A stretch of 32,000 nucleotides of DNA from an uncultured Planctomycetia bacterium (GCA_964536865.1 CAZHYN010000003.1:1-32000), one strand, 5' to 3'. Shown: positions 23,127-26,197, numbered from the stretch's first letter. A program made the numbers and translations. The notes: generated from the sequence alone by a model not told the origin.

Positions 23127-24143
23127 TTAAAGATTTTTCCCCACATACTCAATAAGCTCTACCATACGGCAGGAATATCCCCACTCATTATCATACCAGC
23201 TTAAAATTTTAACCAGATTACCACCTACAACCCTTGTAGAAAGACCATCCACCAATGCAGAATAGCTTGAACCTACTATATCCTTAGAGACTATAGGTTC
23301 TTCCGTGTAACCTAAAATTCCTTTTAATTCTCCCTCAGCAGCTTCTTTTAAAACTTTATTGATTTCTTGAGGAGTAGTATCTCTTTTAGTAACCAAAGTA
23401 ATGTCAGAAATAGAACCACAAGGGGTTGGGACACGCATAGCCATACCATCAAATTTCCCACTTAAGGAGGGAATAACCTCTACTGCAGCTTTAGCGGCAT
23501 TGGTAGTGGTAGGAATAATAGATACTCCTGCGGCACGGGCTCTTCTTAAATCTTTATGAGGTAAATCTAAAATTCTCTGGTCGTTGGTGTAGGAGTGAAC
23601 CGTGGTCATTAAAGCCTTCTCTATCCCTATTTTTTCTTCAATTACTCTCATCACAGGGGTAAGGCTGTTAGTTGTGCAGGAAGCATTAGAAATAATATTA
23701 TGTTTTTTGGAATCATACTTTTCTAAATTCACACCTATATTTACCATAACTGCATCCTCTGCCTCCCCTTTATAACGAGCAGATAAAATAACTTTTTTTG
23801 CGCCTGCAGTTAAATGCTTACGGCAATCATCTAAAGCAGTAAAACGACCTGTTGACTCAACAACTATGTCCACTCCTAAATCTCCCCAAGGAAGTTGCGC
23901 AGGATCCTTTATCGCCAGAACTTTTATTCTTTTCCCTTCTACTATCAGGCTCTCTCCTTCTGCCTTTACCTCACAAGGTAGCACTCCAAAATTAGAATCG
24001 TATTTTAAAAGATGAGCTAAGGTTTTTGCATCAGTCAAATCGTTAACTGCCACAAAATCAATCTCCTTTTTCTCTTTTAAAGCAGCCCTAAAAACTAATC
24101 TCCCAATTCTTCCAAAGCCGTTAATCCCCACTCTTACTGCCAT
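23127..24143 (-). CDS. gap: type I glyceraldehyde-3-phosphate dehydrogenase
   Basis: INGFGRIGR Rossmann opening, catalytic SNASCTTNS, and WYDNEWGYS near the C-terminus. Confidence 0.95.
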
Positions 24144-25176
24144 GACTACCCTCCTCCTTTAAAGAACTGTTCTCCTCTAACTTTACTTCTCTTAAATACT
24201 TAGCTGCTAACTCCGGAGGTGTAAATACCACGTAAAATCCACTACCCCACTCAAAACCCGCAACCCTAGTCAACTTAGGCATTATTTCAAAATGCCAGTG
24301 ATAGGAAAAATGAGAATCGGTATTTACCGGAGAAGTATGAATTATATAATTGTAAGGATGATCCCCTAAAACTTTATGAAGTCTTCCTATCACCTCCCTA
24401 AGGATCTGAGCTAAATTGGATAGTTTAATATCGCCAATCATTCCGTAATCATCCAGATGCTCCTTAGGAATAATCCAAACCTCAAACGAAAAGCGAGAAG
24501 AAAGAGGACAGAAAGCTAAAAAATCCTCATTTTCGCATACTATCCGCTCTCCTGCTTCTAACTCATAAGCAATTATATCACAGAATATACACCTTTCTCT
24601 AAACTCATAGTACTTTTTTGCTCCTTTTACTTCTTCTTTGACATTTTTAGGAACCATAGGTAAAGCTATAAGTTGGGAATGACCATGTTCTAAAGATGCA
24701 CCTGCTTGAACTCCTACATTTTTAAAGATAAGAATATATTTAAATCTTCTATCTTTTCTTAAATCTAAACTTCGTGAACGATAGGCTTTCAATACATACT
24801 CTACCTCTTTGAGGGAAAGCTGATCAAGTCCTTTGTAATGTTGGGGACTTTCTATAATAACCTCGTGAGCACCTATCCCATTGGAAAAATCATATAATCC
24901 TATTCCCTGCTTATCCAAATCTCCCTCAATCCTTAAAGCAGGAAATTTGTTAGGCACCACTCTTACTTTCCATCCTGGAGTATTGGGAGCTCGCTCTTTT
25001 TCAGAAATTGCTTCAATCTCAGGAGGAGTCATAGCTTCATTATTATAGCAAAAGGGGCAATCTTTATCACCCTTCCATTGGAAAGGAGGAAGATGAAATT
25101 CTTCCGGTAAAGTAGGATTCTCTACATCTACTACTACCCACCTACCGACAATAGGGTCTTTCCTTAATTCAGGCAT
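24121..25176 (-). CDS. GalT-family (HIT superfamily) nucleotidyltransferase / nucleotide-sugar phosphorylase-like, catalytic motif intact
   Basis: [14 protein letters not shown], zinc knuckle CPFC, GAHEVII, and active-site H-G-H-S-Q (compare H-P-H-G-Q of GalT). The second half-domain has CIFCDII and YHWHFEIMP. Its last 23 nt overlap gap. Confidence 0.8.
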
Positions 25177-25189
25177 AACTTTTTACACT

Positions 25190-26197
25190 CTACACTTCCA
25201 CTTCTCTTAAGAACTTTGCTGCCTCTTCTGGCAAAGTAGGACATATATAGAAACCTGTTCCCCACTCAAATCCTGCTACTTGAACTAGCCGGGGAGTAAT
25301 CTCTATATGCCAGTGATAATCTTCGTCTATCGTTGACCAGTATCCTGGATAAGGTCGCCTAAAGGGAGCGGTATGAATGATATAATTGTAAGGAGGATCA
25401 GCTAACAGTATTTTTATTTTTAGAAGAACCTTCTTAAGTAGACTGGCCAAAGAAAAAAGGTTTTCCCAAGAAGTTTTGTAGAAATCAGGGGAGTGTTCTT
25501 TGGGAAGAATCCACACCTCAAAGGGAAAACGGGGAGCAAAAGGAACTAAAGCTACAAAACCATTCTCCTCTAAAACCACCCTTTCCTGTTCCTTTAACTC
25601 TTGCCTTATCAAATCGCAGAATACACATCTTTCATGATAATCATAATAAAATTTAGCTCCTTCCAACTCTTCTTTTACACGTTTTAAGTTAACAGGGGTA
25701 GCAATAATTTGTGAGCGAGAGTGTCTCACTCTTCCTCCTCCTGCATCCCATCCGTAGTTTTTAAATACCAAAACATACTTTATCCGCATATCTTCCTGTA
25801 AAGCTCTTATTCTCTCACAGTAGGCCCAAAATACATCTCTTATATTTTCTATTTCTAAGTCTGCCATATTAGCAATATGTTCAGGAGTATCTATAACAAC
25901 TTCATGACTACCCACTCCTTCCATCAAATCATACGGTCCTTTTCCCTTCTTCCACGACTCTTTATCAGGCTCCAAAAAAGGTTTAATACTAGGAACGACT
26001 CTTACTCGCCAGTTTCCTTGATCATCTTTTATGGAATACAACTCTCCAGGTGTTAACGCTTCTTTACCTCGACAGAAAGGACACTCTTTCTCAGGGGGAG
26101 AAGTATCTATATGAGGAAAATCCTTTGGTCTTTTAGCACGTTCAGTAGAAATTATCACCCATCTTCCCAGAATAGGATCTTTTCTTAACTGAGGCAT
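25190..26197 (-). CDS. GalT-family paralogue with nucleophilic His replaced by Arg (H-S-R-S-Q)
   Basis: Collinear with the downstream paralogue (MPQLRKDPILGRWV, CPFC, GSHEVVI, CVFCDLI, YHWHIEITP), but the active-site pentapeptide reads HSRSQ. I prefer the ATG at 26197, preceded by AGAGGT, over the TTG at 26221. Confidence 0.75.
   Translation of the reverse strand: MPQLRKDPILGRWVIISTERAKRPKDFPHIDTSPPEKECPFCRGKEALTPGELYSIKDDQGNWRVRVVPSIKPFLEPDKESWKKGKGPYDLMEGVGSHEVVIDTPEHIANMADLEIENIRDVFWAYCERIRALQEDMRIKYVLVFKNYGWDAGGGRVRHSRSQIIATPVNLKRVKEELEGAKFYYDYHERCVFCDLIRQELKEQERVVLEENGFVALVPFAPRFPFEVWILPKEHSPDFYKTSWENLFSLASLLKKVLLKIKILLADPPYNYIIHTAPFRRPYPGYWSTIDEDYHWHIEITPRLVQVAGFEWGTGFYICPTLPEEAAKFLREVEV

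Follow-up and report, generated by a model that had tools for sequence, protein, structure and literature searches.

Reciprocal loss of active-site elements in a conserved pair of ADP-glucose-phosphorylase-like paralogues points to a probable obligate heterodimer

The 32,000-nucleotide stretch of DNA analysed here (the window), from an uncultured Planctomycetia bacterium (GCA_964536865.1 CAZHYN010000003.1:1-32000), carries on its minus strand two adjacent genes, A and B, that encode paralogues of the galactose-1-phosphate uridylyltransferase (GalT) branch of the HIT superfamily. The upstream copy, A, has an arginine in place of the nucleophilic histidine, and the downstream copy, B, retains the histidine. 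The reading favoured here, to which we assign a probability of roughly 0.65, is that A and B together form an obligate heterodimeric nucleotidyl-transferase of the Arabidopsis At5g18200 type, with one composite active site, located on B. This proposal derives from a comparison of A and B with each other, with their orthologues and with enzymes of known structure, in which the two proteins are found to have degenerated at complementary positions.

A and B align over their full length with 45% identity (BLASTP, E 8e-104). An earlier note on this DNA had described them as collinear GalT/HIT-type paralogues, and every motif that it quoted was located in both reading frames on the minus strand: CPFC in A and B alike, the segment GVGSHEV in A and GIGAHEV in B, the second-half motif CVFCD in A and CIFCD in B, and the YHWH motif, which in A reads YHWHIEITP. 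The active-site loop of A reads GGGRVR-H-S-R-S-Q-IIA. Translation of A starts at the ATG at 26197, which has a GAGG ribosome-binding site just 5' of it and yields the same N-terminus as that of the orthologues, MP(E/Q)LRKDP. A longer reading frame from the TTG at 26221 was rejected as the start, since this TTG falls within a -10 box and the orthologues match the ATG start. The coordinates likewise agree with the earlier spacing of 13 nt between the paralogues (25177-25189) and with the 23-nt overlap of B and gap (24121-24143). The cause of this overlap is a C-terminal tail of about 17 residues on B (24121-24175, minus strand), which is without counterpart in the orthologues (331-338 amino acids) and looks like read-through beyond the ancestral stop codon.

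In the nucleotidyl-acceptor motif of these enzymes, H-x-H-x-Q, the first histidine is a zinc ligand and the second is the nucleophile (bioRxiv 10.64898/2026.09.13.751320). B carries the motif as H164-G-H166-S-Q168, and A reads H159-S-R161-S-Q163. In alignments with 1Z84, 2H39 and 1HXP, Arg161 of A (codon CGC, 25717-25715) aligns with His186 of At5g18200 and His166 of E. coli GalT, and His166 of B falls on the same column; the 2H39 chain has a glycine there, at residue 186. The earlier note had allowed that another histidine of A might occupy this position, or that the arginine might be a lone artefact. No other histidine of A lies at the nucleophile column in these three alignments, and arginine occupies it in 0.96 of the 152 A-type sequences of the pooled alignment, encoded by six codons in all (CGT, CGC, CGA, CGG, AGG and AGA). 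When the 120 closest homologues of each protein were scanned for the motif, H-x-R-x-Q was read in 113 of those of A (62-96% identity, chiefly from metagenome-assembled genomes of Candidatus Omnitrophota) and H-x-H-x-Q in 115 of those of B; the histidine has a frequency of 1.00 in the alignment of 147 B-type sequences. The arginine reported for the upstream copy is thereby confirmed by profile and structure-based alignments and is conserved phylum-wide. By its sequence, A is best classed as a structural but not a catalytic member of the GalT branch.

Both proteins exceed the gathering cut-offs of Pfam families PF01087 and PF02744 (22.1 and 29.2 bits), with scores of 36.0 and 44.6 bits for A and 54.9 and 41.2 bits for B, and each has a Pfam HIT match in its second half. 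The GalT branch to which the earlier note had assigned them is the right one, though the closest characterized relative is At5g18200 and not GalT proper. This Arabidopsis protein is the best solved relative of A (1Z84/2H39; 249 bits, E 5e-73) and of B (1Z84; 223 bits, E 5e-65), in each case over the full length, and the match of A and B to E. coli GalT is 62-88 bits only. The title of the 2H39 entry is 'ADP-Glucose Phosphorylase ... with bound ADP-Glucose'. An AlphaFold2 model of A of moderate confidence (predicted local distance difference test, 70.6) superposes on 2H39 and 1Z84 with template-modelling (TM) scores of 0.75-0.82, and on E. coli and human GalT with scores of 0.66-0.71 at 22-24% identity. 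A two-half-barrel HIT-like fold is thus predicted by modeling for A and by the sequence match to 1Z84 for B. The low-confidence stretches of the model include the N-terminal arm (residues 1-23) and the C-terminal loop (residues 305-318), which is weakly consistent with their becoming ordered only in a dimer.

The second-half CxxC...H...H columns (C216, C219, H255 and H310 of At5g18200) hold the same residues throughout the A clade, the B clade and the single-copy relatives, and E. coli GalT has no cysteine at the CxxC positions. A and B score far below the NF008724 equivalog cut-off of 448 bits (110.5 and 134.7 bits, respectively), while for TIGR00209 (cut-off 102.1 bits) B lies above at 122.3 and A below at 90.6. 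A and B were not filed as GalT because At5g18200 is the better match and their context is not that of the Leloir pathway; their sequences place them instead in that subfamily of the GalT/HIT branch which resembles ADP-glucose phosphorylase. The name 'galactose-1-phosphate uridylyltransferase', as used in the databases, probably over-annotates them.

The significance of the substitutions in A and B emerges from the architecture of the family. At5g18200 and the class I GalTs form homodimers in which the active sites lie at the subunit interface (bioRxiv 10.64898/2026.09.13.751320). In human GALT, Asn97 (E. coli Asn77) resides in the same chain as Gln188 and His186, and Arg48 (E. coli Arg28) is contributed 'from the opposite chain'; the glucose-1-phosphate site pairs the K334-Q346 loop of one subunit with Q188 and N173 of its partner, and in E. 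coli GalT the residues R28, R31, G159 and S161 touch UDP-glucose (PMC5081055). Sequence alignment with 1HXP was used to map A and B onto the E. coli numbering. R28/R31 correspond to R20/R23 in A and N20/L23 in B, N77/D78 to S70/I71 in A and N76/K77 in B, S161 to R156 in A and S161 in B, and H164/H166/Q168 to H159/R161/Q163 in A and H164/H166/Q168 in B. Residue frequencies were then taken from 152 A-type, 147 B-type and 50 single-copy sequences.

At positions that serve a chain's own site, it is the A-type sequences that deviate. At N77 they have serine (0.95), where asparagine is found in B-type (1.00) and single-copy sequences (0.94); at D78 they have isoleucine (0.64) in place of the lysine of the B-type (0.99) and single-copy proteins (0.98); at S161 they have arginine or lysine (0.84) in place of serine or threonine (1.00 and 0.92); and at H166 the arginine of A (0.96) stands against a histidine that is universal in both other groups (1.00 and 1.00). 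A-type proteins are further marked by a one-residue glycine insertion and by lysine or arginine (0.79) replacing the glutamate just before the zinc-ligand histidine. At positions that serve the partner's site the situation is inverted. The arginines at R28 and R31 are retained in A-type (0.99 and 0.95) and single-copy sequences (0.98 and 0.92), whereas in B-type sequences no residue exceeds 0.24 and 0.33, respectively, at these columns. Similarly, the C-terminal loop equivalent to I333-N334-P335 of At5g18200 is maintained in A-type (I 0.98, C 0.90, P 0.95) and single-copy sequences (1.00, 0.98 and 1.00 for the three family residues) and relaxed in B-type sequences.

The proteins of the window follow this pattern. 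In the active-site loop of A, FKNYGWDAGGGRVRHSRSQIIA, Arg156 replaces the essential serine, Arg158 a glutamate and Arg161 the nucleophilic histidine, with the zinc-ligand His159 and Gln163 retained; the C-terminal loop, AGFEWGTGFYICP, is conserved, but its asparagine has become cysteine within the subclade of A. From these alignments A appears to have lost the elements of its own site and kept the arm and C-terminal loop that are lent to a partner, and B appears to have done the reverse. The reciprocal loss is also seen locus by locus: three A copies that bear a histidine at the nucleophile position (L001, L022 and L024) still lack the Asn-Lys pair and contain the insertion, and their B partners are without the arginines. 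Not everything in the pocket of A has changed: A-type sequences vary little or not at all at Asn147, at Gln163 and at each of the eight Cys/His metal ligands.

A lineage in which the two units are joined exhibits the same division. Three fused proteins (P0179, P0391 and P0241), 596-599 residues long and mutually just 52% identical, fill the slot of A and B between PGM-acyltransferase-rpsA-tyrS and gap-pgk-tpiA-secG (compare locus L001). In their first half, the VAVERAKRPNDF arm and the loop AGFEWGTGxYINPTxPELAAEYL are invariant, the zinc knuckle and the Asn-Lys region are deleted, and the active-site loop is scrambled, reading FQHNHSN, LKNLRHN and IGGPYSN across the three proteins. The second half, which lacks an arm altogether, keeps AGASLEHxHTQ. 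Judged by sequence, the degenerate unit of the fusion is pared down to what the heterodimer model requires of it. An AlphaFold2 model of the 599-residue fusion gave a predicted TM score of 0.74, with the first half covered by 3 sequences only, and is weakly compatible with a defined arrangement of two units.

The arrangement of the genes was examined in 80 loci, sampled as one genome per GTDB species and re-annotated with phmmer. A is immediately followed by B in all 29 Omnitrophota-type loci with both genes, and two further contigs end within A; the co-occurrence of the paralogues is strict (29/29). From the stop codon of A to the start of B the median distance is 2 nt, and the genes lie within 10 nt of each other or overlap in 20 of 27 loci, a spacing typical of translationally coupled subunits. 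In all 28 loci in which the contig extends beyond B, this gene is followed by gap, at a distance of up to 200 nt in 26 of them and usually with pgk and tpiA next, and the median spacer between B and gap is 47 nt. The link between the pair and gap, which the earlier note had described as 'fused to gap-pgk-tpiA', is one of conserved gene order and not of tight coupling.

Selection preserves A no less strictly than the catalytic copy. Synonymous sites are saturated in most genome pairs, leaving two comparisons usable for the ratio of nonsynonymous to synonymous substitution rates (dN/dS). Between A and its nearest relative (95% amino acid identity, dS 0.52) the ratio is 0.040, as compared with 0.151 for the neighbouring PilZ gene, and the L004/L006 pair gives 0.057 (A) and 0.045 (B). 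Furthermore, of 351 genome pairs, 80% show less divergence in A than in B.

The history of the two genes is older than their adjacency might imply. Neighbour-joining recovers the A-type sequences as a clade in 84 of 100 bootstraps and the B-type sequences in 60 of 100, and A and B are not sisters in the tree; the backbone is poorly resolved, which limits what can be deduced from it about their origin. An insertion of 7-8 residues, 'GYWxTIxxD', is present in A and in 16 of the 50 single-copy enzymes and absent from B and the other 34. A recent tandem duplication is ruled out by this insertion, which A shares with one single-copy subfamily while B groups with the other. The genes that the earlier note had called tandem paralogues are thus not a recent tandem duplicate, and their sequences are better described as those of two old subfamilies brought together. 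The single-copy enzymes themselves (L027-L081) fall into two subfamilies by the insertion before the YHWH motif, and both adjoin glycogen synthase. As for the nucleophile column, the codons for arginine and histidine are one transition apart (CGY/CAY), and a single His-to-Arg event is ruled out by the nesting of L001, L022 and L024 inside Arg-bearing copies.

The likely substrate is suggested by the relatives of A and B outside the Omnitrophota. Fifty loci from other phyla (Zixibacteria, Nitrospirota, Acidobacteriota, Elusimicrobia, WOR-1/3 and others) contain a single copy with H-x-H-x-Q and, with the sole exception of L056, have no gap nearby. Their neighbours were clustered and the representatives scanned against Pfam. 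A GT5 starch/glycogen synthase adjoins the single-copy gene on the same strand in 24 of the 50 loci, at a median distance of 46 nt; GlgC is a neighbour in 6, a GH57 branching enzyme or amylase/glucanotransferase in about 10, and an NTP_transf_4 sugar nucleotidyltransferase in 8. In a 50%-identity representative library, which yielded 7381 matches at E <= 1e-3, the family is also found fused to what its N-terminal sequences indicate to be a GT5 glycogen-synthase-like protein (P0281, 814 residues) or GH57-like proteins (P0270 and P0369, 858-875 residues). Because the single-copy relatives adjoin glycogen synthase, GlgC and GH57 genes, a role of the family in ADP-glucose/glycogen metabolism is likely, and the Omnitrophota pair would have been relocated beside gap-pgk-tpiA instead of glycogen genes. 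The earlier suggestion of a nucleotide-sugar or glycogen input into these genes fits with the ADP-glucose phosphorylase At5g18200 as the closest characterized relative.

Several further arrangements were seen in this survey. Two loci labelled Candidatus Omnitrophota (L063 and L079) hold a single intact copy, in L079 between glgC and glgA (6782-10574). In L056, which is labelled 'uncultured bacterium' and groups with L063 in the tree, a single intact copy lies downstream of gap-pgk-tpiA (2506-7212). An intact third paralogue might thus exist alongside A and B in genomes that carry the pair. P0265, of 871 residues, is composed of two family units that both retain the histidine. Conversely, the nucleophilic histidine is absent in 15 of about 154 domains of the top 150 cluster representatives, with Arg, Tyr, Val, Ser, Ile or Cys instead. 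The His-less members (P0248, P0302, P0254, P0272, P0245, P0269, P0353, P0273, P0307, P0303, P0267, P0252 and P0244; also L083, 5001-6026) are often without the Asn-Lys pair too, and catalysis thus seems to have been lost repeatedly in the At5g18200-like family.

In the homodimers of this family, which have two active sites, the nucleophile-bearing chain supplies in cis the zinc-held H-x-H-x-Q loop, the essential serine and the Asn-Lys/Asp pair for the nucleotide, and its partner supplies in trans the N-terminal arginine arm, for the substrate phosphates, and the C-terminal loop, for the hexose phosphate. In the mechanism that we propose for the heterodimer, B would provide all of the cis parts (Asn76-Lys77, Ser161, His164, His166 and Gln168), its trans arm having been lost, and A would provide the trans parts, namely Arg20, Arg23 and the GFEWGTGFYICP loop. 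The cis parts of A itself are gone (Ser70-Ile71, Arg156, Arg161 and the one-residue insertion). Since A and B keep opposite halves of the parts of the site, only the A:B dimer would assemble one complete site, with the adenylyl-His166 intermediate forming on B. The mirror site would be doubly defective, and hence dead, and in A would have been rebuilt as an arginine-rich pocket. The predicted reaction is a ping-pong conversion of NDP-hexose and phosphate to hexose-1-phosphate and NDP, in either direction, most probably with ADP-glucose. The exchange of ADP-glucose and phosphate for ADP and glucose-1-phosphate would tie the glycogen/ADP-glucose pool to the adjacent gap-pgk-tpiA genes.

The dedicated active/inactive heterodimer that the earlier note had put forward is thus backed by the reciprocal loss of residues, by translational coupling and by a conserved fusion lineage, from which we infer it. 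It must nevertheless be weighed against the possibility that A and B act separately, B as a homodimeric phosphorylase that manages without the arginine arm and A as a non-catalytic homodimer that binds an anionic metabolite as a sensor or regulator, their adjacency reflecting shared regulation only. Degenerate members that lack both the nucleophile and a neighbouring partner do exist, P0248 among them, and the 15 His-less domains noted above also speak for this possibility. Moreover, the pocket of A looks functional, with Ser70, the glycine insertion, Arg156 and Arg161 conserved and Asn147 and Gln163 kept, and it would be fed by the conserved arms of an A:A dimer. Yet separate homodimers leave unexplained the loss from B of two substrate-contacting arginines that are 92-98% conserved elsewhere and that have no conserved replacement, the coupling of A and B at 0-4 nt, and a first fusion half that keeps just the arm and the loop with its pocket destroyed. 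We regard separate action as unlikely. An A that is still an enzyme, its chemistry or substrate altered, would make of the locus two activities; non-covalent transfer, Arg161-assisted hydrolysis or action on a non-nucleotide phosphate ester could be envisaged. The strong purifying selection on A (dN/dS 0.04) and its near-invariant metal ligands, Asn147 and Gln163 are compatible with such activity, and the conserved basic cluster could bind and activate phosphates. However, four same-chain residues have gone together (E. coli N77, D78, S161 and H166), and human H186A is not uridylylated (PMC5081055). His and Arg also interchange within the A clade, which would be unlikely for a residue carrying new chemistry, and the equivalent pocket is destroyed in the fusion lineage. 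An enzymatic A is judged to be less likely still. Finally, the loss of the nucleophile, and nothing further, would speak for a sequencing or assembly artefact or for a decaying pseudogene. This explanation is refuted by the Arg that 96% of 152 homologues carry, in six codons and across many independent assemblies, by the intact reading frame of A, and by a dN/dS of 0.04 in a gene that evolves more slowly than B.

A number of observations nonetheless weigh against the obligate heterodimer, or at least against its simplest form. The His-bearing A copies are nested among Arg-bearing ones, which implies that the arginine itself is dispensable, and the A copy of L001 is also without the second arm arginine. 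In deep-branching lineages the C-terminal loop of B is still the canonical INP. P0248, with HPVSY in place of the motif, lies between coaX (type III pantothenate kinase) and usp (universal stress protein), with no adjacent partner. The neighbour-joining tree fails to recover A and B as sisters, with the B clade at 60/100 only, and the first half of the modeled fusion rests on just 3 sequences. The same-chain and partner-chain roles are carried over from human and E. coli GalT by homology, and the support for the predicted binding of A to B, and for the predicted dependence of B on A, is comparative. Lastly, the changed residues of A are conserved in their new state, with Asn147 and Gln163 kept, which suggests that the 'dead' pocket does something beyond the simple model. 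One rather unlikely elaboration is that the pocket (Asn147, Gln163 and the metal ligands, with Arg156, Arg/Lys158 and Arg161 in place of the nucleotide subsite) is an allosteric phosphometabolite site that would gate the flux from ADP-glucose/glycogen to gap-pgk-tpiA, and that the family is an unrecognised reservoir of HIT-fold pseudoenzymes. Candidate ligands could be phosphate, pyrophosphate, glucose-1,6-bisphosphate, fructose-1,6-bisphosphate or phosphoglycerate.

The surroundings of the pair are summarized, together with its active-site elements, in Table 1. The earlier note had credited the pair with the best promoter match in the window. A well-placed site is present upstream of A, but its score of 10/12 is equalled by four other sites in the 6.7-kb stretch that was scanned (20500-27200), and promoter-like sites are not in excess there (14, compared with 14.9 in shuffled sequence). 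A promoter at 26251-26224 is plausible, though unproven. No terminator-like sites were found in the intergenic spacers from A to pgk. The two terminator-like matches on the minus strand lie within the reading frames of B and pgk; matches of this kind are rarer than in shuffled sequence. An operon of A, B, gap, pgk and tpiA, in which the pair would be co-transcribed with gap, is likewise plausible but unproven.

Table 1. Coordinates of the gene pair, its active-site elements and the adjoining genes (all on the minus strand).
Feature	Coordinates	Size or residues	Remarks
Gene A	25190-26197	335 aa	Non-catalytic ADP-glucose-phosphorylase/GalT-type paralogue; proposed pseudo-subunit
A, N-terminal arm RWVIISTERAKRP	26126..26164	Residues 12-24	Arg20 and Arg23 retained
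A, Ser70-Ile71	25985..25990	Residues 70-71	In place of the family Asn-Lys nucleotide-binding pair (E. coli Asn77-Asp78)
A, remodelled active-site loop FKNYGWDAGGGRVRHSRSQIIA	25700..25765	Residues 145-166	1-aa Gly insertion; Arg161 at 25715-25717
A, C-terminal loop AGFEWGTGFYICP	25238..25276	Residues 308-320	Equivalent of the GalT hexose-phosphate loop lent to the partner's site
Gene B	24121-25176	351 aa	Catalytic paralogue; H164-G-H166-S-Q168 intact; His166 codon at 24679-24681
B, degenerate N-terminal arm	25105..25143	Residues 12-24	Asn20 and Leu23 where the family has Arg/Arg
B, Asn76-Lys77	24946..24951	Residues 76-77	Intact nucleotide-binding pair
B, canonical active-site loop	24664..24726	Residues 151-171	
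gap	23127..24143		Glyceraldehyde-3-phosphate dehydrogenase; first 23 nt shared with the end of B
pgk	21940..23115		Phosphoglycerate kinase
tpiA	21171..21932		Triosephosphate isomerase
secG	20841..21161		Last conserved gene of the string
Promoter-like site	26224..26251		TTGCAA-16 nt-TATAAT with a TG-extended -10; falls in the 49 nt that separate A from the PilZ gene

Directly upstream of A lies a gene for a PilZ-domain protein of 111 residues (26271-26606, minus strand; Pfam E 7e-13), a candidate binder of cyclic di-GMP. A PilZ gene is also found upstream of A in the nearest relative (L086), and tyrS occupies this position in more distant Omnitrophota; the PilZ gene has no obvious connection to the A/B pair. 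Elsewhere in the window, a Mutator-family transposase (14216-15226, minus strand; PF00872, E 6e-59) is probably an insertion sequence. It falls within the kilobase of lowest GC content, 14001-15000 (0.28 as against about 0.36), and is flanked by genes for an Opp/Dpp-type ABC transporter and an apgM-type phosphoglycerate mutase (12237-13436). Short open reading frames at 30070-30945 and 31466-31891, both on the minus strand, have partial Pfam matches, comprising a 126-residue rubrerythrin, a 119-residue FAD_binding_6 fragment and a PCMT match from profile position 64; these may be truncated genes, mis-called starts or pseudogenes.

Enzyme-pseudoenzyme heterodimers and the At5g18200-like family are both known already, and the A/B pair is apparently undescribed in the searchable literature. 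That literature, with a comprehensive review of alpha-glucan enzymes in prokaryotes (2024) among it, contains no account of the pair or of reciprocal loss of site elements in the HIT/GalT superfamily, which is not proof of novelty. The glycogen-cluster context of the bacterial members was similarly without description there, and the review does not mention an ADP-glucose-phosphorylase-like enzyme. If the proposal is true, this would be the first heterodimer of the superfamily made obligate by reciprocal loss of shared-site elements, and a phylum-wide case of a symmetric two-site homodimer turned into an asymmetric one-site enzyme with its pseudoenzyme, by way of duplication, complementary degeneration and fusion. 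B would be inactive alone, Arg20 and Arg23 of A would be essential at the site of B, and one adenylyl group would form per heterodimer. The label 'galactose-1-phosphate uridylyltransferase' would, moreover, be corrected for two genes in essentially every Omnitrophota genome. The finding would be less significant if A and B act separately. That bacterial ADP-glucose-phosphorylase-like enzymes sit within glycogen gene clusters is of interest in its own right.

Among characterized systems, At5g18200 resembles the pair most closely. It is the best match in sequence and fold and has the same length as A and B; the first zinc site (CPFC and two histidines) and the second-half CxxC...H...H are common to all three. 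The family consensus has the ERAKRP arm, the NK-type motif and the GFExGxGxYINP loop, and B keeps the H-x-H-x-Q. At5g18200 is, however, a homodimer with two equivalent sites, whereas A and B each keep half of the site-forming elements; A has an arginine at His186, and the activity of A and B is a prediction from sequence. The class I GalTs of E. coli and humans share with the pair the fold, the dimer logic, the His166/His186 nucleophile, Gln168/Gln188, the partner-chain Arg28/Arg48 arm and the partner-chain hexose-phosphate loop, but differ in that A and B lack a Leloir-pathway gene context and have a second metal site of the CxxC type.

Heterodimers of an enzyme with a pseudoenzyme paralogue are exemplified by AdoMetDC and its 'prozyme' in trypanosomatids, where the dead paralogue is retained because the active one needs it. 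A dead paralogue kept under selection for its active partner is what is proposed for A as well. Unlike the prozyme, though, A would supply catalytic-site residues directly, and not allosteric activation, and the dependence would arise from reciprocal loss across the interface. A final parallel lies within the GalT monomer itself, whose two HIT-like half-domains, of which the first alone is catalytic, likewise reflect a duplication in which catalysis was lost from one copy and the dead copy was kept as site or scaffold. In GalT this event was ancient and took place within one chain, whereas A and B would replay it between whole subunits, the two units of the fusion lineage being once again joined in a single chain.

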